This document shows positions 41,526-53,600 of a stretch of 64,000 nt of DNA, piece by piece. A model generated the notes under the pieces. That model saw only the letters and a list, made by a program, of their open reading frames with translations. It did no database searches and was not told the DNA's origin. The translations under genes and the position numbers were made by a program. The stretch is from Candidatus Eiseniibacteriota bacterium (GTDB lineage Bacteria > Eisenbacteria > RBG-16-71-46 > JABDJR01), in contig CAVXKA010000003.1 of assembly GCA_963762255.1 (NCBI GenBank), forward strand, positions 576,001 through 640,000. The letters are read 5' to 3'. Every line of letters begins with the position of its first letter. Within the stretch, counting starts at the first letter, position 1.

Positions 41526-42062
41526 TCAGCCGGTGATCCGGGTTTCCTCGCGGCGGATGAGATCCATCGCGTCCGCGGAGGTTCGCGCGTGCAGGAGGCT
41601 GCGTTGCAGGTCTCCCGAATAGAGCAGGCGGCTGATGCGGGCAAGCACTCGGATGAACCCGCCGCGCTCTTCGGGCCCCACGACCAGGAAGACCAGTTGC
41701 ACCGGGCGTTCATCCAGCGCGTCGAAATCTATCGGACGCGCCACGCGGCCCAGCGCCAACGACAACCGGGTGGCGCCCGCGCTCTGCGCGTGCGGCACCG
41801 CGATGCCGCCCCCGATGCCGGTACTCATCACGCGCTCGCGCTGCTGGATGTCGGCGACCATGCGACGCGTATCGGTGACCGCCTTGCTGTCGTAGAGGGC
41901 CTGCACCAACGCCTCGATGACCGCGTCCTTCGTGGAAGCGGCAAGATCCAGTCGAATGCACGACGCGTCGAGGATTTCGGTGAGCAGGACCGCCCCCTTC
42001 GGGTCTGCACCCTCCGCCTGGACGGAAGGCGTGGAAGGCTCGTTCAAACTAAACGCGCGCAA
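41526..42062 (-). CDS. PTS IIA-like (PtsN/EIIA-Ntr family) protein
   Basis: RERVMSTGIGGGIAVPHA, IDFDALD..PV; GAAGGAG RBS before a TTG start. Confidence 0.9.
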   Translation of the reverse strand: MRAFSLNEPSTPSVQAEGADPKGAVLLTEILDASCIRLDLAASTKDAVIEALVQALYDSKAVTDTRRMVADIQQRERVMSTGIGGGIAVPHAQSAGATRLSLALGRVARPIDFDALDERPVQLVFLVVGPEERGGFIRVLARISRLLYSGDLQRSLLHARTSADAMDLIRREETRITG

Positions 42063-42143: not shown

Positions 42144-42835
42144 TCAACGTCGATAGATGAAAGTCATCGCGAACCAGGCCTCGACGGGTTCCGCCCCGAG
42201 ACGGGCGGGCACGAACCGCATGCTCTCGGCGGATCGCTCCACTGCCTCGCGCAACGCGGTCGAGAGCGCGGGGGACGCCGGCTCGACCGCCGTCACGCGG
42301 CCATCGCGCCCGATGCGAAGGCGAACCGGGATCTCCAGGGGAGACGGGCAGGGATTCGGACTCCTGCGGGGTGAGGGGAAGCGCGCCGGCAAGGAGTCGG
42401 GGTGGTTGGTAGCGCGCCGAGGCCCCGCCGCCGATCCCATCGTCCCCACCGCCCGTCCCCTGCGAACCCGGCGATCCCTCGACCTCGCCACCCTCGCCGG
42501 CACTCCCACCCGCCGCCGGCTCCGCGACCGGAAGCTCACCGGTCACCGCCGGCGAAGGAGCCTCGATCGGCCGCGGAGGAATCACCTCCGGCACGGGCGC
42601 GGTCACCGGCGCGGCGGCATGGGCGGGCCGCGGCGACGGCTCGGGGGTATCCGCCAAGGAAACCACCATGAAGTCTCCGGCGCGCTCGGGTGACACGATC
42701 GACGGTCGATCCCGGGGTCACCGCGCGCCAGAGCGCGGCCGGAGCCGCAAGCAGGGCGAGGTGGCAAGCCACCGAGGCCGCCACCGCAGTGCGCAGCCGC
42801 GGCGCCGGACGCTCCGCCGGAGAGGGCGCCTTCAT
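42144..42835 (-). CDS. TonB-family energy transducer-like protein, two apparent frameshifts (about 42700 and 42337)
   Basis: TM anchor SVACHLAL (SHLS-like), Pro/Gly-rich linker, C-terminal VRLRIGRDGRV...MRFVPARLGAEPVEAW, spread over three frames. Confidence 0.7.
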
Positions 42836-44740
42836 CGGGACTTTCCAGGCGAGAGAACGGTGAACGGCGCGATGCGTCGCGCGGACCGGCCGCTCAAGAG
42901 ATCCTCGATCTCGACTTGAAGCTGGTAGCGGCCGGGGTCGAGGGGCGGCATGTCGAGGCTCAAGATTTGCTCGAGCTTCGATCCGGGATCGGCGACTTCG
43001 AACGCGAGTTCGGCCTGCGCCGGGTTCCGCCCCACGCGAAGGAGCACCTTGACCCAGCCGACAGCCGAGGGGCGCCCCACGCTCACCCGCACCCGCGCCC
43101 GGTGTGCGCCGTCCTCCCCCACGGCAAGACCGTAGGCCTCGAAGCCGATCCCCAGCGGCGCCCCCACCGGATAGCGATGGCCCGGGTTGGGAAGGCCGGC
43201 GCCGTACGCGCGCCGGTAGCGCCCCGACACGTCGTCGAAGGCGACCCGGGTCAAGAACGCGATGTCGCTCAGCGCCGGACCTTCCCCGGTCGCCTCCGCC
43301 GGGGAGAGGGTCGCGAAGCTCGCCGCACGCGCGCGTTCCCCGCGGTCCAGCGTCTCCAGCCCCACGATCGCGCTGTCGGAGATCCCGTCCACGATGAAGA
43401 TCCCCACCAGGCGGCCGAGCGGGTCGCGCTCGAACTGCGCCCAGCTCGCCACCGCGGAGTCCTTGAGCGTCCAGCGATCGTCGTAGAGCGCCACCTTTCC
43501 CGCAAGCCGGTGGGGCGCGTCGAGAAGATCCTGCGGCCACTCGTCGGGGGCCAGCGCCGCGACGACCTCGATGCGGCCCGCCCCGTGCGGATCCTGGAAG
43601 CGCCACAGTTCGACCTCCTGGCCGAATTCGGGCGCGGTCTGGGGAGACGCGTACGTGGTCGGCGTCCCCACCATGAAGAGATCCTGGCTCTGCGGCGTCC
43701 CTTCGATTGGATTGAAGAACCGCCCGCTGAGGTTGTAGTCGACGAACGTGAAGTAGAGCGGCGCGTCTCCGTCGCCGAGCCGGACTTCCAGCGTGGGCGC
43801 GGCAAGAGTCGCCGAGATGCGGTACTCCCTGGCCCGCACCACATCCTTGCGATAGACGAAATCGTCGGGAAGGCCGTAGCGCACCAGCGCCTGACCCGGG
43901 GCATGGTCCCAACCGCGCACCGAACCCGACTCGATCCCGAAGAGAAGTTCCGCCTGCACGACACGGCGATAGTGCTCGAGCAGCCGTGGGTTCTCGAGAT
44001 CGGCGGGCGTCGGGTCGTTCCAGCGCCAGTAGTCGTCCCAGAACCGCGCGCTGTCGGGCGCCGCGAGGCGGAGCTCCTCCGCGGCGGGATCGAGCACGGC
44101 AAGGGTCGTGAAGGGACGGAGCTCCTCGGGGGAGAGCCGTGCGAGACCGGCGCGGTACGCTTCCGCCGCGCGGCGCCAGGCCCGGGTCTCGGTGAGGCGT
44201 GCCGCGCGGACGAGATCGGGCCATCCACTCTCCGGTTCCACCATCCCGCCACCGCGCGCAGAGGGAGTCCAGCTCCGAGGCGCGCCCCTCGTACAGGGCA
44301 AGCCGCACGGCCCGTCGCACCGCGTTGGGGTTCGCGGGATCGAGTTGGAGCGAGACCCGGTTCTCTTGCGCCGCATCATCGAGGAGTTCGCCGCGCAGTG
44401 TGCTCTGGTAGCGGCGGAGCTGGTGGGCGGCCAACTCGCTCCAGAGATCGGAGCGATCCGGGGCCAGCGCCAGCGCTTGCGCATAGGCATCGCGCGCCTC
44501 CTGCAGGAACCCCCGTCGATCCTGGAGGCGGGCGAGTCGGACCCAGAGATCGACGTCGCCGGGACGGCTCAGCAGCACTTCGGTGAGGGAAGATGCTTCC
44601 TGCCGGCGCTCTTCGATCTCGCGGCTCGCATCGACCGCGGAGGCGGGCTGCGGCGAGAGGCCGGCACAAGCCGCAAAGAGAACGAAGAAGAACGCACGCT
44701 TCGCCCCAAGACCGAGCCGACCGGAGACGGCCCGCCGCAC
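42832..44740 (-). CDS. TPR + GWxTD-like domain exported protein, apparent frameshift near 44246
   Basis: Signal peptide, TPRs, then YWRWNDPTPADLENPRLLEHYRRV..A...FG...GWDHAPGQALVRYGLPD; C-terminal Ig-like region. Confidence 0.75.
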
Positions 44741-44753
44741 GCCGGGGCCGGCG

Positions 44754-47700
44754 CTACACGCGGGTGGCCGGCTTGATGCCGTACCGCGTGATCTTGTTCT
44801 TCAGCCCCTTGCGGGAGAGCCCCACTTCCTTGGCCGCCCGGGTCTTGTTCCAGGCGTGCTTCTCGAGGGCCTCCACCACCAGCCGGCGCTCCATGTCCAC
44901 GACCGTCGAGCGCAGGTCCGCGTCGGAATCCAGACCTGAGGATGTCGATACGATCTCGGTCGCGGTCAGGACCTCGCGCGGGAGAAGGTCGACGCCGATC
45001 GTCTCCGCATCCTCGGCGAGGATGGCGGCCCGACGCACCACCTTCTCCAGCTCGCGGACGTTGCCCGGCCACGCGTAGCGGACCATGCGCTGGATGGCGG
45101 CGCGGGTGAACCCGGGGACGCCGCGGCCGGTCTGCGAGTTGAACGTCTCGAGGAAGTACTCGGTCAGGAGCGGGATGTCCTCGGGGCGTTCGCGCAGCGC
45201 GGGCACACGGATGATGATGTCGTTGAGGCGGAAGTAGAGGTCCTTGATGAACGGCTCGTCGCCCTGTTCGAGGAGATCCTTCTTGCTGGTGGCGACGATC
45301 ACTCGCACGTTCAGCTTGCGGTACTGAGTGGATCCGACCGGGCGGACCTCGCCCCGATCGAGGAGATGGAGCAGACGGCGCTGCACGCCCAGGCCGGCCT
45401 TGCCGATCTCGTCCAGGAAGATGGTGCCGCCGTCGGCCTCCTCGAAGAGTCCCTTCTTGTCGTGGCTCGCGCCGGTGAAGGCGCCCTTCACGTAGCCGAA
45501 CAGCTCGCTCTCGAGAAGGTTCTCGGGAAGCGCGGCGCAATCGACGGTCACGAACGCCCCCGCCGCGCGGTTGCTGGAGAGATGGAGCGCGCGAGCGATG
45601 AGGGTCTTGCCGGTGCCGGTTTCGCCCTGAAGCAGCACGGTCAGATCGGTGCGGTTCACCTTTTCCACCAGCTTCAGAATCTCGATCATCTCGGGGTTCT
45701 GGGTCACCACGTCGGCCAGGAACACGCGCCGGCTCAGGCTGTCCTCTTCCGTCCGGTTGATGACGCTCTCGAGCGCGGCGCGGTCGACCAGGGCCTCGAG
45801 CTGCGGAACCAGCGCCAGACAGAGGTTCAGATGGCTGGGTCCGAACGAGGACCGCCGGTGATCGGCGAGGCGATCCAGATACAGGTACGCGGCCGTGCCG
45901 TTACCGTAGATCGGAATCGCGAGAAGCGAGGACGCCTTGCGGGTCGCCGCCACCTCGGTCCACGGCTGGCGCACCGCCGTTCCGGCATCGAGCAGGATCT
46001 CCGGACGCTCGGGCCGCAACGACCGGAGCACCGCGGTCAGCCGCTGAGCCGCCTCGGACCCGATGCGATAGGTGGCGCCCGGCTGGTCCTCGGCCACGAA
46101 CACCAGCGAGGCGCCGTCCGCCTCCACCGCCTGGGCCATGATCTCGAGCACCTGATTCAGCTTGTCCGCGTAGGGCCGGCGGGACTCCACGATCTCCTCG
46201 AGGCGGCCGGCGGTGCGGAACGCCCCCAGGTTGGTGACCGACGTCTCGACGAGACGATTCTCAAGGTCCTTCTGCGCCTCGGCGAGCAGGGCGCGACTGG
46301 TCGAGCTGTCGAGGCCGTTGACGCGGTTGCGTGCCTGCTCGAGAAATTCGCCCGCCCGATCCAGCTCGCCGCGGCGGCTGGACACGTTGGACAGCGCGAT
46401 AAGGGTCTCGACCTCCATCTCGTGGAGGGACAGTTCGGCGAGAATCTGCCGCGCCTCGACCAGGAGCGCTTCGGAGCGCGGAAGTTCGTGGTTGAGGCGA
46501 AGCCGCTGGCGACCCTGCTCCAGCAGCACTTGCGCGAGCGGGAGCGGGCTGCCGAGCCGCCGCAGCTCCTCTTCGGCCTCCGAGAGTTCCTGGTAGCCGT
46601 TCGCGTCGCCCTGGTGGAGCAGTACGCGCCCCAGGGTCACCTTCGCGAGCGCGGTCTCCATGCGGTCGTTGAACCGAGACGAGAGCTCCACGGCCCGGCG
46701 CGCCAGGTTGGCGGCGTCCGCGTCCTGGCCCTCGGTGAGAGCGAGTTCCGCGCGCAAACGCAGGAGTTCGCGAGCGAGGTCTCCCTCTGGGGAGCTCTCG
46801 ACCGCCTTCCGCCAGGCCACTTCCAAGCAGCGGCGCGCGCGGGAGAGTTCTCCCCGAGCCTGATGCAGTTGGCCCAGAGAGCGATACGTGAGCGCGGTCT
46901 CGCGCGGATACTGCTCGTCGGAGCAGAGTTCCAGCGCTTGCTCGAGCCCTTCCAGCGCTTCGTCCCAGCGGCGGTGTACGAGATCGACCCCGGCCACGCC
47001 GAGCAGAGCGCGAATGACCTCGATCGGGTCGTTGACCGAGCGCGAGACTTCGAGCGACTCCGCGAAGCACTCGCGGGCGCGGTCCCAGTTCCCCATCTTG
47101 TAGTAGACAAGACCGAGGTTCTTGAGATCGCCGCGCCGCTCGGGATAGTCGCCCTCGATGGCCTTCAGGCTCGCCGCCACCTGGAGGTACTCCAGGGCCA
47201 TCCGCCAATCGCACTTCTCTTTGTAGATCAAACCGAGGTTGTTGTAGGCGAGGGACAGGCTGCGGATGTCGCCTGCGCCCTTGAACGAGGAGAGCGCCTG
47301 CCGGAAACACTGCGCGCTCCGGTCGAGATCTCCCTGGCGGTTGAACGCGGAGCCGAGGAGGTTGAGCGCGAACCCTCTGGACGAGGGGTCGGTCTTGGGG
47401 TCGATGAGGGCGAGAGCTTCGTCGCCGCAACGCAGAGCGACGTCGATGTGGCCCTGTCCGAAGTGGATCTTGCCCAGCTTGATGAGGATCTTTCCGAGTT
47501 CATCGTCGGACTCGGCCTGACGCGCGGCTACGGCCGCGTCTTCGAGAACGTTGAGCGCTTCCTTCCAGCGCCCGATGCGCTCCAGGCAGCTCCCGACGCC
47601 GCGCAGCGCGCGGGCCTTCTCGAGGAGCGTTACCGTGCCGTCCAGCACCTGACGGTAGGTTCGGACGGCGCCTTCGAAGTTCGCTGCGGCTTGCTCGAGG

Positions 47701-47792
47701 TCGGCGAGGCTCAGCAACTCGTCCGCGCCGCCGCGGATCGGGGCTTCCTTGCTTTCCTTCTGCGAAGCGGCTTTCTTGGCCGGCTCACTCAT
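44754..47792 (-). CDS. sigma54-dependent enhancer-binding protein with long N-terminal TPR array, GAF-like domain, AAA+ and Fis HTH
   Basis: TPR units (AYNNLGLIY, LKNLGLVYY), GETGTGKT, ESELFG..KGAFTGA, FLDEIG, WPGNVREL, NKTRAAKEVGLSR; no receiver domain. Confidence 0.92.
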   Translation of the reverse strand: MSEPAKKAASQKESKEAPIRGGADELLSLADLEQAAANFEGAVRTYRQVLDGTVTLLEKARALRGVGSCLERIGRWKEALNVLEDAAVAARQAESDDELGKILIKLGKIHFGQGHIDVALRCGDEALALIDPKTDPSSRGFALNLLGSAFNRQGDLDRSAQCFRQALSSFKGAGDIRSLSLAYNNLGLIYKEKCDWRMALEYLQVAASLKAIEGDYPERRGDLKNLGLVYYKMGNWDRARECFAESLEVSRSVNDPIEVIRALLGVAGVDLVHRRWDEALEGLEQALELCSDEQYPRETALTYRSLGQLHQARGELSRARRCLEVAWRKAVESSPEGDLARELLRLRAELALTEGQDADAANLARRAVELSSRFNDRMETALAKVTLGRVLLHQGDANGYQELSEAEEELRRLGSPLPLAQVLLEQGRQRLRLNHELPRSEALLVEARQILAELSLHEMEVETLIALSNVSSRRGELDRAGEFLEQARNRVNGLDSSTSRALLAEAQKDLENRLVETSVTNLGAFRTAGRLEEIVESRRPYADKLNQVLEIMAQAVEADGASLVFVAEDQPGATYRIGSEAAQRLTAVLRSLRPERPEILLDAGTAVRQPWTEVAATRKASSLLAIPIYGNGTAAYLYLDRLADHRRSSFGPSHLNLCLALVPQLEALVDRAALESVINRTEEDSLSRRVFLADVVTQNPEMIEILKLVEKVNRTDLTVLLQGETGTGKTLIARALHLSSNRAAGAFVTVDCAALPENLLESELFGYVKGAFTGASHDKKGLFEEADGGTIFLDEIGKAGLGVQRRLLHLLDRGEVRPVGSTQYRKLNVRVIVATSKKDLLEQGDEPFIKDLYFRLNDIIIRVPALRERPEDIPLLTEYFLETFNSQTGRGVPGFTRAAIQRMVRYAWPGNVRELEKVVRRAAILAEDAETIGVDLLPREVLTATEIVSTSSGLDSDADLRSTVVDMERRLVVEALEKHAWNKTRAAKEVGLSRKGLKNKITRYGIKPATRV

Positions 47793-47831
47793 GAATCCAA
47801 CCCTCCGTGTTCAGGCCTGCGCTACCCTGTC

Positions 47832-48188
47832 CTAGACCAACCGTCCACGCAGGAAACCGCCGCCGAACACGACCATGAGCCACGTGCGCACCCAGGACGT
47901 GAACCGATCGGCGCGCGGAACCCGAAGCACGGGCTCCTGAACTTCACCGATCGAACCGCCCACATACGAGTCGATCTGAAAGGTATCCGGGTCAGCCTCG
48001 AGACCACCGCCGAAGCCCCCGCCTACATCCTGGGGCCCGCGATTTCCGAGCTGGCTGCTGCCGCCGACGTAAAACTCCCCCGCCCCGAGGTCGTCATTGG
48101 CCACCGCGGAGGAGGCCGGGAACAACACCCAGAGGCACAGGGCCGCCACCAACCAGACCGGCCTGAATCGGGTGTCTTGCCATCTCAT
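47832..48188 (-). CDS. Small exported peptide/precursor-like protein (118 aa)
   Basis: GAGGTG RBS 6 nt before ATG 48188; Sec signal ending SAVA; Gly/Asp-rich body with two YVGGS and EADPD; Trp-rich hydrophobic/basic C terminus. Confidence 0.65.
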   Translation of the reverse strand: MRWQDTRFRPVWLVAALCLWVLFPASSAVANDDLGAGEFYVGGSSQLGNRGPQDVGGGFGGGLEADPDTFQIDSYVGGSIGEVQEPVLRVPRADRFTSWVRTWLMVVFGGGFLRGRLV

Positions 48189-48245
48189 TGTCATCACCTC
48201 ACTGAAAGCAAAGTGCGTCCATGGAGTACTCGCAGCATTCTACCC

Positions 48246-48260
48246 GCACAGACCATGCCA
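48246..48260 (-). promoter_or_regulatory. sigma54 -24/-12 promoter TGGCAT-N5-GTGC
   Basis: GG and GC at the exact spacing of consensus TGGCAC-N5-TTGC, 57 nt upstream of the small ORF start. Confidence 0.65.
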
Positions 48261-48531
48261 GAGCGGTCGGCGGCGGCATCCCAGTTCCAGTTCGCTAACC
48301 TATTGGATAGCATGCACTTCAGTTTGCACTCGCCGAATCCCGCTGATACTCCTGCGACCAGTATAGCCCAGTTTCCGACTCTTATCTACCCACTCCGATC
48401 GCCCTTCGCGGCAAACCCGGGTTCTCTAAGGAGTTAGTGATGGAAAGCAAGTATCCACCCGGGCCCGCCGACGTGAAACCCCTTTGCCATCAAAGAGATC
48501 CCTGAACACGCGCTGTATTCCGCTTCCGTTA

Positions 48532-48560
48532 TTGACCTAAATCCTTGCATCAGCTATAAT
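48532..48560 (+). promoter_or_regulatory. sigma70 promoter TTGACC-N17-TATAAT
   Basis: Near-perfect consensus upstream of the diguanylate cyclase. Confidence 0.8.
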
Positions 48561-48667
48561 TGCCTCGTTTTACTCCCACCATCGCACCCTATCGTCGCCA
48601 TCGCGGGGCCAGAGCCATGGGACTGGTCCGCCCGGTTCAGCACGTCCTCCAACGTGGACCGTGGGGA

Positions 48668-50029
48668 ATGAAGCGCCAAACCATACCGTTTCGAGAGTTG
48701 CTCCAGCGGGTGCTGCCCGTCGACAGGCTTCCCCCTGTCGATCAGGCGCGAGTAGCCCGCGCGATCGAGAGCAACGATCCACGAGATCTCGAAGAGGTGG
48801 GGTTTGAAGCGCTCGATCGACTGGTCGATCTGGGCTACCTCCGATTGGTCGAAGAGGTGCTGCGAGGGGACGAGAAAGTTCGCCGCTATCGCGATCTCAC
48901 CAGCGGCAACACCATCGCGATCCGCCTCCCCACCGGTGATGAAGACGAGGGGATCTTCAAGATCCCTCTCCCCATCCGCGACTGGAAGGGAGGCACGTCT
49001 CTCGACCAGATCCGCACGCTGTTCAACCTCTACAACAAGATCCTCACGCAGGACTCCCACCTGCTTCGCGGTCCGGGGGACATTCTTCGTCAGGTGATGC
49101 TGACCGCGCGGCAGATCCTGGGCTGCGAGCGGGTTTCCTTCTGGGCGACCCCCCGTCAGGGCGAAACCGGGACCCTGCTCGACACCCTTAGCCATCCTCC
49201 CTACGACGAGGAACTGGCCCGGGAGTGGGTGATCGGACAGCGCTATCTGGTCGTGTTCCCGGAGCTCCCCGCGCAACTCGACCCTGCGACGGGGCGGCTC
49301 GACACCGAGTTTCATTCGCTCGCCCTCATCCCGATCGGCGACCCGGATCAAGCGGTGTACGGGGTGCTGCACGCGTGGAGCCTTCGACCGCACTTCTTCA
49401 ACGAGGATCGCCAGGGGCTTCTGAGCCTTCTCTCCGAGTTCGCCACCGATCTCCTGCGCCGGTCGGAGATTCTCGGCAACCTGGTCTTCGTCGACGCCGC
49501 GACTCAGGTCTACAACCGCGCGTACTTCAACCTGCAACTCGACAACGAGATCGCGCGCGCCAAGCGCGAGAGCAAGTCGCTGGCCCTGGCCATCGCCGAC
49601 ATCGACGACTTCAAGAACTTCAACAGCCGCTACGGCTACGAGGGCGGGAACCAGGTTCTTGCCAATGCGGCTCAGATCCTCAAGAGCGGGCTCCGGCCGT
49701 TCGACTCGGTGGCACGCTGGGGAGGGGAGGAGTTCGCTCTCATCCTCACGTCGCCGGTCACGCTGGACGATGCCACAACCGTGTGCGGGCGGCTGCGGCG
49801 GGCGACGGAGCTCTCCAGCTTCACCGTCACCGGTCTCGAAGGGGAGTCGATGCCCGCCCGCATCACGATCAGCATCGGGGGGGCGATCTACCCTCAGGAC
49901 GGCGTGTCCGCGGGCACGCTCTGGCGATCCGCCAACGCCGCCCTCGTCTACGCCAAGCGCACCGGCAAGAATCGCGTGGTCTTCGCCTCCGAGATCCCCG
50001 CCGATCACCGCGGCGGGGGCAACGGATAA
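48668..50029 (+). CDS. GAF-GGDEF diguanylate cyclase
   Basis: DIDDFKNFN..YG...GN, I-site RPFD, RWGGEEF, TISIG, AKRTGKNRV; start may be 48618. Confidence 0.92.
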   Translation: MKRQTIPFRELLQRVLPVDRLPPVDQARVARAIESNDPRDLEEVGFEALDRLVDLGYLRLVEEVLRGDEKVRRYRDLTSGNTIAIRLPTGDEDEGIFKIPLPIRDWKGGTSLDQIRTLFNLYNKILTQDSHLLRGPGDILRQVMLTARQILGCERVSFWATPRQGETGTLLDTLSHPPYDEELAREWVIGQRYLVVFPELPAQLDPATGRLDTEFHSLALIPIGDPDQAVYGVLHAWSLRPHFFNEDRQGLLSLLSEFATDLLRRSEILGNLVFVDAATQVYNRAYFNLQLDNEIARAKRESKSLALAIADIDDFKNFNSRYGYEGGNQVLANAAQILKSGLRPFDSVARWGGEEFALILTSPVTLDDATTVCGRLRRATELSSFTVTGLEGESMPARITISIGGAIYPQDGVSAGTLWRSANAALVYAKRTGKNRVVFASEIPADHRGGGNG

Positions 50030-50656: not shown

Positions 50657-53600
50657 CTACCGTGCCACAGCCACCCGCTCCATTCGGCGGATCTTGCTCC
50701 CGTCATGCCCGTCGAGATCGAGCAAGAAGAGATACACCCCGTTGGCCACACGGTCGCCGGCCTCGTCGCGGAGGTCCCACACGAAGGCGTTCTGGCCGAC
50801 CGAGGTGGGCAGGTCATCCTGGCGCACGCGACGCCCGCTCACCGCGTATACGTTGAGCCGCGCCCGCCTCACGCTCTGGTTGAGCGTGTAGTAGAGGGCG
50901 CCCTCCTTCCCCTCGCAGGGGTTGGGGTAGAAATACGTGCTGACGAGTCGCATCTCGCCGCCGGAGACGGCGAAGCAGCGTTCGAAGGAGGTCTCCCCTC
51001 CCGCTTCGTCCAGGATCCGAAGCTCGATGTCGTGCTGGCCGGTTCCCCACACCCGGTTTACCTCTACCGTCCACTGGCGCCGCGTCTCGTCCACCGGAGC
51101 CAGAACCGCGGTCATGACGGTGTCGTTCACCGACACCGCGAAGTTCCCCTCGCTCAGCGGAACCGGCGAGTCCACTTCGAAGCGGATCGTGGCCGCCAAG
51201 TCCACCACGCTGGAGCAGTCCCGCTCCAGCCGCTTGCCGTCGGCCAGAGCCACGACGCCCAGGCTGACCGGAAGCACGAATCGGGTTTCGCGCCCGGTCC
51301 AATCCCGCGCCACCACGGAAATGTCATAGCTGCCAAGCCGGAGCGTGGTCGCAAACGCCACCTGGTAGGACTGGGCCCCGTCGTCCCGGCTCCCCGGCCT
51401 GACGATGCTCACCCGATCGGAGGGCAACTCCGTCTCCCCGTCCAGCACCCGGATGGTGGAAACATCCACATCATCCGAGACGACTGCGGTGATGCGCAGG
51501 GTGTCCGAGAAGGAGGCGGCCAGGAGCGGGGTGCCGTCGGCCACCGTCTCGCCGTTCACGCTCACCTGGAACCCAGGCCCGGCGATATCCACTTGGAGCG
51601 CGGGATCGCCCAGGGTCACGTAGGTGCGGAACATCTCGCGCCAGTCGGGCGAGTTCTCGAGCGCGCAGGCCGCCCACGCCCGTGTCATGGCCTCGCCGAG
51701 GATGCGCCGGGGCCGGCCGGTGGCGGGATCGCGCGGCAGGTTCCAGAACAGGGCCCGCGAGGTGTACTTCTGAGCGTTCGGGGTGATGTGAAGCCACTCG
51801 TACCCCGTGGAGGCGATGGACGCGATGGCCCCCCGACGATTGCCGGCCAGGAGCAGAGCCTCGCCCATCCCATCCCCGAAGGTCTTCTCCTTGGCATGCT
51901 CGAATTCGTTCAGGTGGCACGCGTAGCCGAAAAAGATGAAGGGTTTTCCAATGTTGTTGATCTTGTCGAAGTCGCGCGTGGTCAGCTTCGGGTAGTGCTC
52001 GAACAGCGCCTCGGTTGTCATCTGGTTCTTGTTGGCGTGGCCGTGGTACTCCCAGACCAACGCGCCCCGGCTCAACTCCTGGAGCATCACGGGCGTCACC
52101 TTGGCGCGGGTGTACTCCCTCGTGTTGCCGGCGCCCGAGAGCAGCGGGCAGTCCGAGGGGTTGCCGGGGTGGCGATTGAGCGCGGCCACCGTGTCGAGAT
52201 AGGCGGCCAACGGCAGGAGCACACCGTCGAAGTCCGGGAGCCTCCCCAGCACGCGGATGGAATCGATCACGGCCTCGCTCATGCGCCGGAAATTGACTTC
52301 ATCGACCTTGAAGCAATAGTCGGCGTTCGGGTAGATGCTCGTCGAGTACTGGTCGTCGGCCAGGAAGAAGGCTCGGTTCCGCCACGTGTCCTCGGGCTTC
52401 CAGTCCTCGTAGGCGACGATCTTGTCGATGACGGTGCTCGCCTCCTCGACGCTTCCCACCGGCAGGCGGCCGATGTGCATCTCGGGGAACACGTCCAGGG
52501 CGTTGTCGGTGGGGCGCAGCGCGCCCACGAACCAGTTGTCGGTTCCGGCCAGTTCCTTCCCCTCCGGCCCCGGCACGTAGGCGAAGTGCATCATGGTCGG
52601 GACGAAGTCCGGATCGGATGTGGGATGGTTGAAGTCGTCGACCGCGGTGGAGCGATAATCCTCGCTGGCATCACCACCCATGAGCACGTAGGTCGGGGCG
52701 GGGCTCCAGGTGCGGAACGCCTGGGCCAGAAAGCGCTGGATGGCCCACGGGGTCTTGTCTCCACCCGCGAACTGGTCGTAGATCTCCACGACGTCGCAAA
52801 CGAAGACCCGGTGCCCCTGGGCTTCGCGATGGGCCACGAGCGGGCCCCACGCGTCCTTGAACGAAGGATGCGTGATGAGGATGTAGTCGCTCCCGTTTCC
52901 TTCGGCCAGGAGATCGCGGGGGAGGCCCGAGCGCGATGGTCTGTGCACCGAGATCCGCGCCCGGCACCCGTGTCGTCGCCGGAAGTCCGCTCAACGACGC
53001 GGGCACGAAGGCCACGAAGCTCTTGCGCGTTCCACCCACCGAGGCGCGGATCCTTGCCGTGTACGCGCCACCCTCCGCCGTCACCTGCGCCCGCATGCGG
53101 ACCGGAGTGGCCGGATCGGTGATCTCCACTACCACGACGTCCTGCGAGGTAAACCCGGTGACCGCGAACTCCAGAAGCCCGGTCCGGTCACCGGAGTTGA
53201 ACACCAACTGGTTCCCCCGCGCCTTGGTCAGGCGGTCGTAGGTGAGATCGAACCAGTCGAACGCGGCCCCGGTGCTGTTGGTGATGGAACTGGTGCGTCC
53301 GGTGATGAATACGGTGTTGGTGCCCAGGCTGAGACAGCCCGCACTCGCGCGCGATCCGCTCCGGAAATCGAGGCCGTTCTGGCCTTCGAAAGCGCCGTCG
53401 GTGAGGAGCTGGCAACTGTTGACCTTCAGCGACACCAGGTGGTTGTTGTAGGCGAGGGTCGAGAAGAGCCCTTGCCAGAGCGCGCGGACGTTGAAGCTGC
53501 CTTGCGGGTCGAAGTCGTAGGTGTAGACCCGGGTGTACTCGTTGACCTTGCTGGGACCCAACCAGTAGAAGGAGGACGTGATGGGGAGTAGCCCGGAGCC

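Follow-up and report, generated by a model that had tools for sequence, protein, structure and literature searches.

To our knowledge, peptide signaling through cytoplasmic receptors built of tetratricopeptide repeats (TPRs) is known only from the Bacillota and their mobile elements. The known switches of sigma-54 activators are phosphorylation, small molecules and anti-activator proteins, and the enhancer-binding proteins that carry ligand-sensing N-terminal domains include NorR and NifA (GAF), XylR/DmpR (V4R) and TyrR. Here, we analyze a two-gene locus in a 64,000-nucleotide (nt) stretch of DNA from a Candidatus Eiseniibacteriota bacterium (GCA_963762255.1, contig CAVXKA010000003.1, positions 576,001 to 640,000; hereafter the window, in whose positions all coordinates are given). 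A gene for a small, putatively exported protein directly precedes the gene for a TPR-bearing sigma-54 activator; both genes, and the promoter element before them, lie on the minus strand. The original prediction, made from the letters of this DNA, read the locus as an autoinducing loop resembling RRNPP systems and did not recognize the combination as a described system; in keeping with the latter, our full-text literature searches found no description of a TPR-gated sigma-54 activator with an adjacent gene for an exported ligand.

Among RRNPP systems, the closest resemblance is to NprR-NprX. The minimal NprX peptide is Ser-Lys-Pro-Asp-Ile-Val-Gly, an internal part of the secreted pro-peptide, and RRNPP receptors grip the peptide backbone with asparagines, as described in the available portion of PMC3763537. 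The present locus likewise places the gene for a putative cytoplasmic TPR receptor next to a small signal-peptide gene (compare the available portions of PMC3763537 and PMC10075063). As with NprX in the same portion of PMC3763537, a short internal motif with a Pro-Asp core is the predicted ligand; as in RRNPP, the predicted binding mode is that of an extended peptide in a groove lined with asparagines, and the pair can be auto-regulated. The locus departs from RRNPP in that no receptor homology was detected, the nearest solved TPR structures among the matches listed being those of OGT and LGN; in that its output is an AAA+ sigma-54 activator with a C-terminal HTH_8 domain, where the RRNPP effector is an N-terminal helix-turn-helix (HTH) or a phosphatase; in its diderm host outside the Bacillota; and in its larger small protein with a conserved C-terminal helix. 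Because homology, effector domain and taxon all fail, the pair is not a member of RRNPP, though it may work alike. The available portion of the RRNPP_Detector paper (PMC10075063) mentions neither sigma-54 nor AAA+.

With enhancer-binding proteins of the NorR, NifA, XylR/DmpR and TyrR type (see the available portion of PMC2941729 for ligand-sensing members), the activator shares a central AAA+ domain with the GAFTGA motif, a Fis-type HTH, presumed N-terminal gating of the ring and the absence of a receiver domain. Its sensor, by contrast, is a 12-repeat TPR superhelix, and the predicted ligand is a motif of an encoded exported protein rather than a small molecule. The modeled module may be described as a ligand-gated enhancer-binding protein combined with a TPR peptide receptor, both of known kinds. 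STAND NTPases with TPR sensors (MalT, AfsR, Avs) are comparable in that a TPR arm gates the oligomerization of an ATPase that switches on transcription or defense; they differ in using a STAND module in place of the sigma-54 AAA+ ring and in having no known dedicated adjacent gene for an exported ligand. The PEP-CTERM system PrsK/PrsR/PrsT, in the available portion of PMC1569441, also ties sigma-54 control to small exported proteins and includes a TPR protein; there, however, the activator PrsR is a response regulator that has a kinase, and the TPRs belong to a lipoprotein of its own.

A small gene precedes TPR activators across the lineage

On the evidence of sequence conservation, the gene for the small exported protein and that for the TPR activator constitute a conserved cognate pair and a real two-gene module. 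The 118-residue open reading frame (ORF) of the original prediction is borne out, as is its 39-nt spacing from the 1012-residue activator (Table 1). The ORF has a Shine-Dalgarno site, and its product combines a basic N-terminus and hydrophobic helix with an Ala-x-Ala site and a Gly/Pro/Ser/Asp-rich body. The host genome encodes one rpoN and 23 full sigma-54 activators together with TatC and Omp85-family proteins; the presence of the latter family identifies the host as diderm. Under a fixed rule set, a small ORF was found before 3/3 TPR-bearing activators of this genome and before 0/20 of its other sigma-54 activators; among 3000 random control positions, one passed the loose rule and none the strict one.

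The two further TPR-bearing sigma-54 activators of the genome are located on another contig, C1. The first matches the window's activator from end to end at 32% identity; the second, which has no GAF domain, matches it at 41% identity in the AAA+ and HTH parts. Each is directly preceded by a small ORF in which a signal-like helix and a Gly-rich body are joined by a motif of Pro-Asp plus an aromatic residue and by a hydrophobic helix at the C-terminus, and the small ORFs of both paralogous pairs are conserved in relatives, again followed by an activator. A profile of the small proteins, searched against the window's own genome, recovered only the window's copy and neither of these two ORFs. It is by architecture and a short motif, not by homology, that the paralogous small ORFs are counted as kin. 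A gene for a peptidase of the prolyl-oligopeptidase family (S9; L017:9068-11830, minus strand, on C1) immediately precedes one of the paralogous pairs; its product is a candidate for an enzyme that would process or degrade a signal containing Pro.

The lineage survey covered 206 species genomes of the window's phylum as delimited by the genome service (one class, 18 families), including one unpublished genome (G081) that entered this count alone. Full-length relatives of the activator, of ~1000-1070 residues and 33-48% identity, are present in 193 of these. Within the window's family, synteny always places the small ORF between a divergent GAF-GGDEF gene and the activator. A related-loci search with a single-protein query, aimed at the spread beyond the lineage, returned only 3 loci. 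Upstream DNA was examined at 62 loci outside the window's family, spread over 17 further families; this sample was not random, comprising the 22 best matches and 40 loci picked from the listed matches to spread over genera. A strict automatic rule flagged 50 of the 62 and inspection by eye added 10 more; one locus was cut by a contig end and one had no upstream DNA. The expectation that a small signal-peptide ORF consistently precedes such activators was confirmed at 61/61 assessable loci. These upstream ORFs are co-directional, encode ~82-140 residues and end 18-260 nt before the activator. They share a basic N-terminus, a hydrophobic helix, mostly an Ala-x-Ala site, a Gly/Pro/Ser/Asp-rich body, a Trp/Leu/Arg-rich C-terminal helix and a motif of the Gly-(Asp/Glu)-Pro-Asp type, the flavors of which are clade-specific. 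In one relative, tandem small ORFs of the Lys-Pro-Asp-x-Trp type stand before the activator (L025 and L028; G007:C28, ~1663800-1664700).

Domain organization and fold of the activator

The activator belongs among the enhancer-binding proteins, with an AAA+ domain that carries Walker motifs and GAFTGA, in a genome that holds rpoN and a conserved -24/-12 element. The intact GAFTGA of the original prediction corresponds to residues 770-775, of which G770, F772, T773, G774 and A775 are invariant across 27 sequences, and Pfam matched AAA_lid as well. The approximately 500 residues of TPRs are present as proposed (residues ~21-491 by Pfam, resolved as 12 repeats in the structural model), and a TPR_MalT match spans residues 106-330. 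The proposed GAF-like domain stands in part: a GAF_2 match exists, but at 20.6 bits it falls below the 28.6-bit cut-off; a paralogue on contig C1 scores 35.1 bits. A receiver domain and an adjacent kinase had been stated to be missing, and indeed Response_reg is not among the Pfam families listed for the activator (25 of 33), and the pair is flanked by a GAF-GGDEF gene and an exported TPR protein. The activator reaches no NCBIfam equivalog cut-off. Identity with PrsR was considered and rejected, the score being 267.3 bits against a cut-off of 502.6 and extending over the AAA+ and HTH parts only.

An AlphaFold model of residues 1-545 (mean predicted local distance difference test (pLDDT) score 89.3, predicted template modeling (pTM) score 0.80) shows 12 repeats followed by a 40-residue helix at residues 497-536. 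In a Foldseek search, the TPR model came closest to the solved folds of the OGT superhelix, of LGN/Pins and of TONSOKU. In OGT and LGN/Pins, the TPR groove accommodates peptides in extended form, and the solved TONSOKU structure includes bound histone H3.1. A search of all PDB sequences with a TPR-domain profile returned, among the best 60 of 195 matches, designed TPRs, LGN/Pins, OGT, SPINDLY, AfsR, kinesin light chain and APC subunits; the RRNPP receptors Rap, NprR, PlcR, PrgX and AimR appeared neither among these 60 nor at Foldseek ranks 1-49.

The small, putatively exported protein

Conservation within the family indicates that the small ORF is a real gene. A protein search with a single query recovered it in 7/7 other family genomes at 34-47% identity and, with the same query, in 0/33 genomes outside the family; the aligned family ORFs retain the ribosome-binding site, the signal peptide, one motif block and the hydrophobic C-terminal helix. 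In-frame alternative starts exist at 48194 and 48197, and the Shine-Dalgarno site lies at 48194-48200. The AlphaFold model consists of an N-terminal helix (residues 9-22), a disordered middle (residues 23-92, pLDDT ~50) and a C-terminal helix (residues 93-117).

Among 59 small proteins of the lineage, the N-terminal region is hydrophobic in 59/59 and its n-region net positive in 57/59. A Trp residue lies within the last 30 residues in 55/59; the best 18-residue hydropathy of the C-terminal region has a median of 0.8 and resembles a membrane span in 3/59 only. The window's small protein matches no Pfam or NCBIfam family, and the NCBIfam models, PEP-CTERM included, matched none of five small proteins scanned. 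Look-alikes returned by the Atlas (TraO and outer-membrane families; 0.92-0.93, 125-138 of 256 features) were set aside as chance, the recognition value of 2146 falling below the mark of 2300. In one family (f10, loci L050-L097), the small proteins carry an unusually conserved Arg-Asn-Arg-Leu-Leu n-region, often with an Arg just past the predicted cleavage site; these features are reminiscent of atypical Tat signals and Sec-avoidance, and TatC is encoded in the window's genome.

A predicted complex between motif and TPR groove

The original prediction had suggested co-folding as a check. We modeled activator residues 1-690 (alignment of 27 sequences) together with residues 31-118 of the small protein (alignment of 25), and the resulting complex docks the conserved motif into the TPR groove. 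Three runs gave ipSAE interface scores of 0.69, 0.00 and 0.66 (median 0.66), while the best of three unrelated-protein controls scored 0.00; the runs agreed in at least 2% of contacts, with a pLDDT of 26 or more for the small protein. The mark used for this score was reached by 58/80 solved complexes and 2/110 mismatched pairs, counts that hold only roughly here because custom alignments were used.

Confident contacts of the small protein are confined to residues 62-75, which is exactly the motif block that had been picked independently beforehand as conserved across the lineage. The activator's contacts run along the concave face of repeats 3-10 (residues 104-417) and involve several basic residues as well as Asn144, Asn184, Asn185 and Asn225; in the activator alignment, Asn185 does not vary and Asn225 hardly does. 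The predicted TPR contact positions are better conserved than the remaining positions (mean column entropy 1.75 vs 2.16, Mann-Whitney p 0.002). On the strength of these models, we regard direct binding of the motif to the TPR domain as probable.

Promoter and upstream region

The sigma-54 type -24/-12 element proposed upstream of the small ORF has a match at the expected place; taken alone, it is no better than chance, as the pattern TGGCAYG-N5-TGC occurs once in the window against 0.24 expected, and at least once in 23/100 shuffles. The support for the element is therefore its conservation: it is invariant in 8/8 orthologous family loci, while the spacer around it has diverged. The activator would act on this element.

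The proposal that such an element consistently precedes the homologues did not hold. Searched upstream of the small ORF at 0-1 mismatch, the pattern was found at 8/8 loci of family f1, 2/3 of f2 and 4/4 of f12 (one carrying one mismatch), that is, in three families (14/15 loci), and at 0/55 loci of twelve other families and 0/2 paralogues of this genome; control stretches inside the activator gene matched in 0/32 cases at 0 mismatches and 5/32 at 1 mismatch. In a quick maximum-likelihood tree, the f1 and f2 copies form one clade and the f12 copies another, and the C1 paralogue groups with f10 copies. With the promoter confined to three families, auto-induction would be clade-specific rather than general; the gene pairing is general. 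A genome-wide scan for the regulon yielded 200 matches against 504 in a reversed-strand control and, in this GC-rich genome, is uninformative.

The two integration host factor (IHF)-like sites of the original prediction were not recovered, there being no match to the consensus WATCAANNNNTTR with at most one mismatch between 48260 and 48460; elsewhere in the window the consensus matched 6 times against 4.8 expected. An imperfect inverted repeat further upstream (Table 1) is a candidate binding site of the activator. A perfect 7-3-7 version of it stands before one paralogous pair; as a general activator site the repeat was rejected, the pattern used having matched at 12/60 loci only. At 48360-48365, ~100 nt upstream of the -24 element, stands a conserved TATACT. 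The junction of small ORF and activator is spanned by metatranscriptome contigs from two studies (X2 record 15, X3 record 23), with 92-99% identity to the window; no contig of the RNA libraries covers 48501-48681, a gap from which nothing is inferred.

Table 1 Coordinates of the features of the locus in the window
Feature	Position	Strand	Basis or remark
TPR-GAF-like-AAA+-HTH sigma-54 activator, 1012 residues	44754..47792	-	Pfam domains
TPR superhelix, residues 21-491, 12 repeats	46320..47732	-	Pfam TPR families and model
GAF-like domain, ~residues 545-666	45795..46160	-	Weak GAF_2 match
AAA+ sigma-54 interaction domain, residues 696-861, Walker A and GAFTGA	45210..45707	-	Sigma54_activat, E 1.3e-58
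Fis-type HTH_8 DNA-binding domain, residues 966-1004	44781..44897	-	Pfam, E 2.5e-11
Small exported protein (putative), 118 residues	47832..48188	-	Start ATG at 48188, stop codon included
Predicted signal peptide, residues 1-30	48099..48188	-	Basic n-region, hydrophobic helix, Ala-x-Ala site; sequence features and model helix 9-22
Acidic Pro-Asp motif, residues 62-75	47964..48005	-	Sole block conserved lineage-wide; predicted TPR-groove ligand
C-terminal Trp/Leu/Arg-rich helix, residues 93-117	47838..47912	-	Model helix, pLDDT ~80-84
Sigma-54 type -24/-12 element (TGGCAYG-N5-TGC)	48246..48260	-	~55 nt before small ORF
Imperfect inverted repeat (GGnTAC-N3-GTnnCC type)	48441..48460	-	Conserved block in 8 family loci; ~185 nt upstream of -24 element

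Neighboring genes

The divergent gene upstream of the pair encodes a GAF-GGDEF diguanylate cyclase (48532-50029, plus strand), is syntenic in 8/8 family loci and has a textbook TTGACC-17-TATAAT promoter at 48532-48560. Speculatively, cyclic di-GMP could be a second input to the GAF-like domain of the activator. Beyond it, on the minus strand, a gene at 50657-52948 encodes a peptidase of the gingipain family (Peptidase_C25, E 1.3e-61) that has a C-terminal domain of the FlgD_ig type.

Downstream of the activator, 42832-44740 on the minus strand encodes an exported TPR protein resembling GWxTD-domain proteins. In relatives, this gene is a single ORF of ~630-675 residues (for example L010:6932-8959); in the window it is broken by a frameshift near 44250, the frame change appearing alike in the GC content of third codon positions (GC3) and in tblastn, and the frameshift is either an assembly error or the mark of a pseudogene. 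Two genes downstream of the activator, as also in L010, lies a gene for a PtsN-like enzyme IIA (EIIA) protein (41526-42062, minus strand; PTS_EIIA_2, E 4.6e-32). PtsN-like proteins are usually located in rpoN operons; in this genome, rpoN is on a different contig.

Discussion

Taken together, a model emerges in which the small protein and the activator are a cognate ligand-receptor pair, connected by export, cleavage and re-import of the motif peptide; to this full chain we assign a probability of roughly 0.4. The small protein would be exported with a cleavable signal peptide, and its disordered body would carry the acidic Pro-Asp motif ahead of the Trp-rich amphipathic helix at its C-terminus. 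Following periplasmic cleavage, an oligopeptide permease would take up the motif peptide for cytoplasmic read-out, as in RRNPP; with at least four full genes for oligopeptide-type binding proteins (SBP_bac_5), the genome has the means for uptake. The motif would sit extended along the concave, asparagine-lined groove of the 12-repeat superhelix, and groove occupancy would make itself felt at the AAA+ ring by way of the long helix and then the GAF-like domain, and would set whether the activator can assemble and open sigma-54 promoters. In the window's clade the pair has a sigma-54 promoter of its own, which gives the loop a means of feedback. We infer the steps of export, cleavage and re-import, and likewise the sign of the effect and the target genes. 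The RRNPP-like autoinducing loop of the original prediction is supported in part, by the cognate pair, the docked motif, rpoN and the clade's promoter; no RRNPP receptor was among the matches listed for the TPR domain, and the -24/-12 element is not general.

Several observations weigh against this model. The sensor is cytoplasmic and the ligand exported, so the two would meet either by re-import or by capture before export. The small proteins (~95-140 residues) are larger than RRNPP pro-peptides, the full span of 82-140 residues lying at or above the usual range; a simple pro-peptide model leaves their conserved C-terminal helix without a role, and the predicted contact of 14 residues is longer than typical imported signal peptides. 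With regard to the modeled complex, one of the three runs scored 0.00, and the pLDDT of the small protein was 27-42, leaving its own fold uncertain; TPR-peptide complexes have already been solved, so the pass may partly reflect likeness to these. Co-variation of groove and motif, a check proposed with the original prediction, gave a divided answer: both change together between clades, but they do so along the tree, which is no proof of co-evolution. The sigma-54 promoter is absent before the pair in 55/55 loci of twelve families and before both paralogues. Lastly, two library contigs of one study (X1 record 8, X5 record 32) extend across the -24/-12 element and upstream by another 64-74 nt, ending at 48324-48334, 25-40 nt downstream of TATACT; such contigs show neither start nor strand, and DNA may be present in the libraries. 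If they are RNA, not all transcription comes from the sigma-54 promoter, and a second promoter lies upstream; it may be a sigma-70-type promoter at TATACT, its transcript including the sigma-54 promoter.

Capture before export is the alternative that survives best, and we consider it a rather unlikely one. Here, the groove would bind the motif in the unexported pre-protein and export would remove the ligand, so that the activator would read export flux or membrane energization, in a manner similar to the freeing of sigma-28 when FlgM is exported, and tune envelope genes that depend on sigma-54. The pairing and the docking fit this account equally well, and neither a protease nor an importer is needed. 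Retention of export signals in 59/59 small proteins suggests that export itself is part of the function; a disordered body with a 14-residue extended contact suits a protein ligand of the LGN-NuMA type; and ligand and receptor would share one transcript, the junction being bridged by the RNA-library contigs of two studies. The parallel with FlgM lies in the control of a regulator by export of a small disordered partner; FlgM differs in being exported by the flagellar type III system rather than by a Sec-type signal peptide and in targeting a sigma factor. We know of no precedent for a Sec pre-protein as a regulatory ligand, Sec export is usually fast, and only an action outside the cytoplasm would account for the conserved C-terminal helix.

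It is also conceivable, and in our estimate unlikely, that the two proteins make no direct contact: the small protein would be an envelope protein co-transcribed with the regulator, in this clade its sigma-54 target, and the TPR domain would sense something else. ZraP with ZraSR and pspA with PspF are comparable in that a sigma-54 activator has a small envelope partner that feeds back on it, and activators often adjoin their target genes. ZraP works through a membrane kinase, however, and PspA is a cytoplasmic protein that attaches to the AAA+ domain; in Pfam and NCBIfam, the small proteins match neither the ZraP/CpxP/Spy nor the PspA families. The exported location of the small protein opposite a cytoplasmic sensor, the complex run at 0.00 and the low partner pLDDT would all fit an absence of contact, as does the tie of sigma-54 regulons to the cell exterior described in the available portion of PMC3162934. 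Speaking for contact are the pairing itself, which is kept in 55 loci that have no upstream sigma-54 promoter, the occurrence of the small ORF only beside TPR-bearing activators (3/3 vs 0/20), and a model interface that falls exactly on one conserved motif with controls at 0.00. An indirect relay, in which a further component would receive the signal of the exported protein in the periplasm and pass it inward (the GWxTD-like TPR protein and a membrane protein being candidates), is improbable: the downstream exported TPR gene does keep its place in the 5 family loci with enough sequence, and the amphipathic C-terminal helix does suggest membrane or protein contacts outside the cytoplasm, but the conserved core holds no membrane-spanning transducer and the docking result would go unexplained.

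The choice between re-import and capture before export is a sharp and answerable question, and the pair is compact, two genes and one 14-residue motif, which makes it directly testable in a heterologous host. We put forward only tentatively, and hold to be doubtful at present, that the pair represents a widespread, undescribed class of sigma-54 activators that read an encoded peptide, that this class arose independently of RRNPP, and that it serves true peptide signaling between or within cells of diderm, mostly uncultured phyla, with several parallel channels per genome. If this is true, the three pairs of the present genome, each with its own motif flavor, would be such parallel channels. 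A TPR-gated sigma-54 activator with its own exported ligand would be a new class of input for enhancer-dependent transcription, and the pair could serve as an orthogonal peptide-responsive switch. Such an activator would also bring the sensing of encoded peptides to the diderm lineages that dominate soils and sediments.

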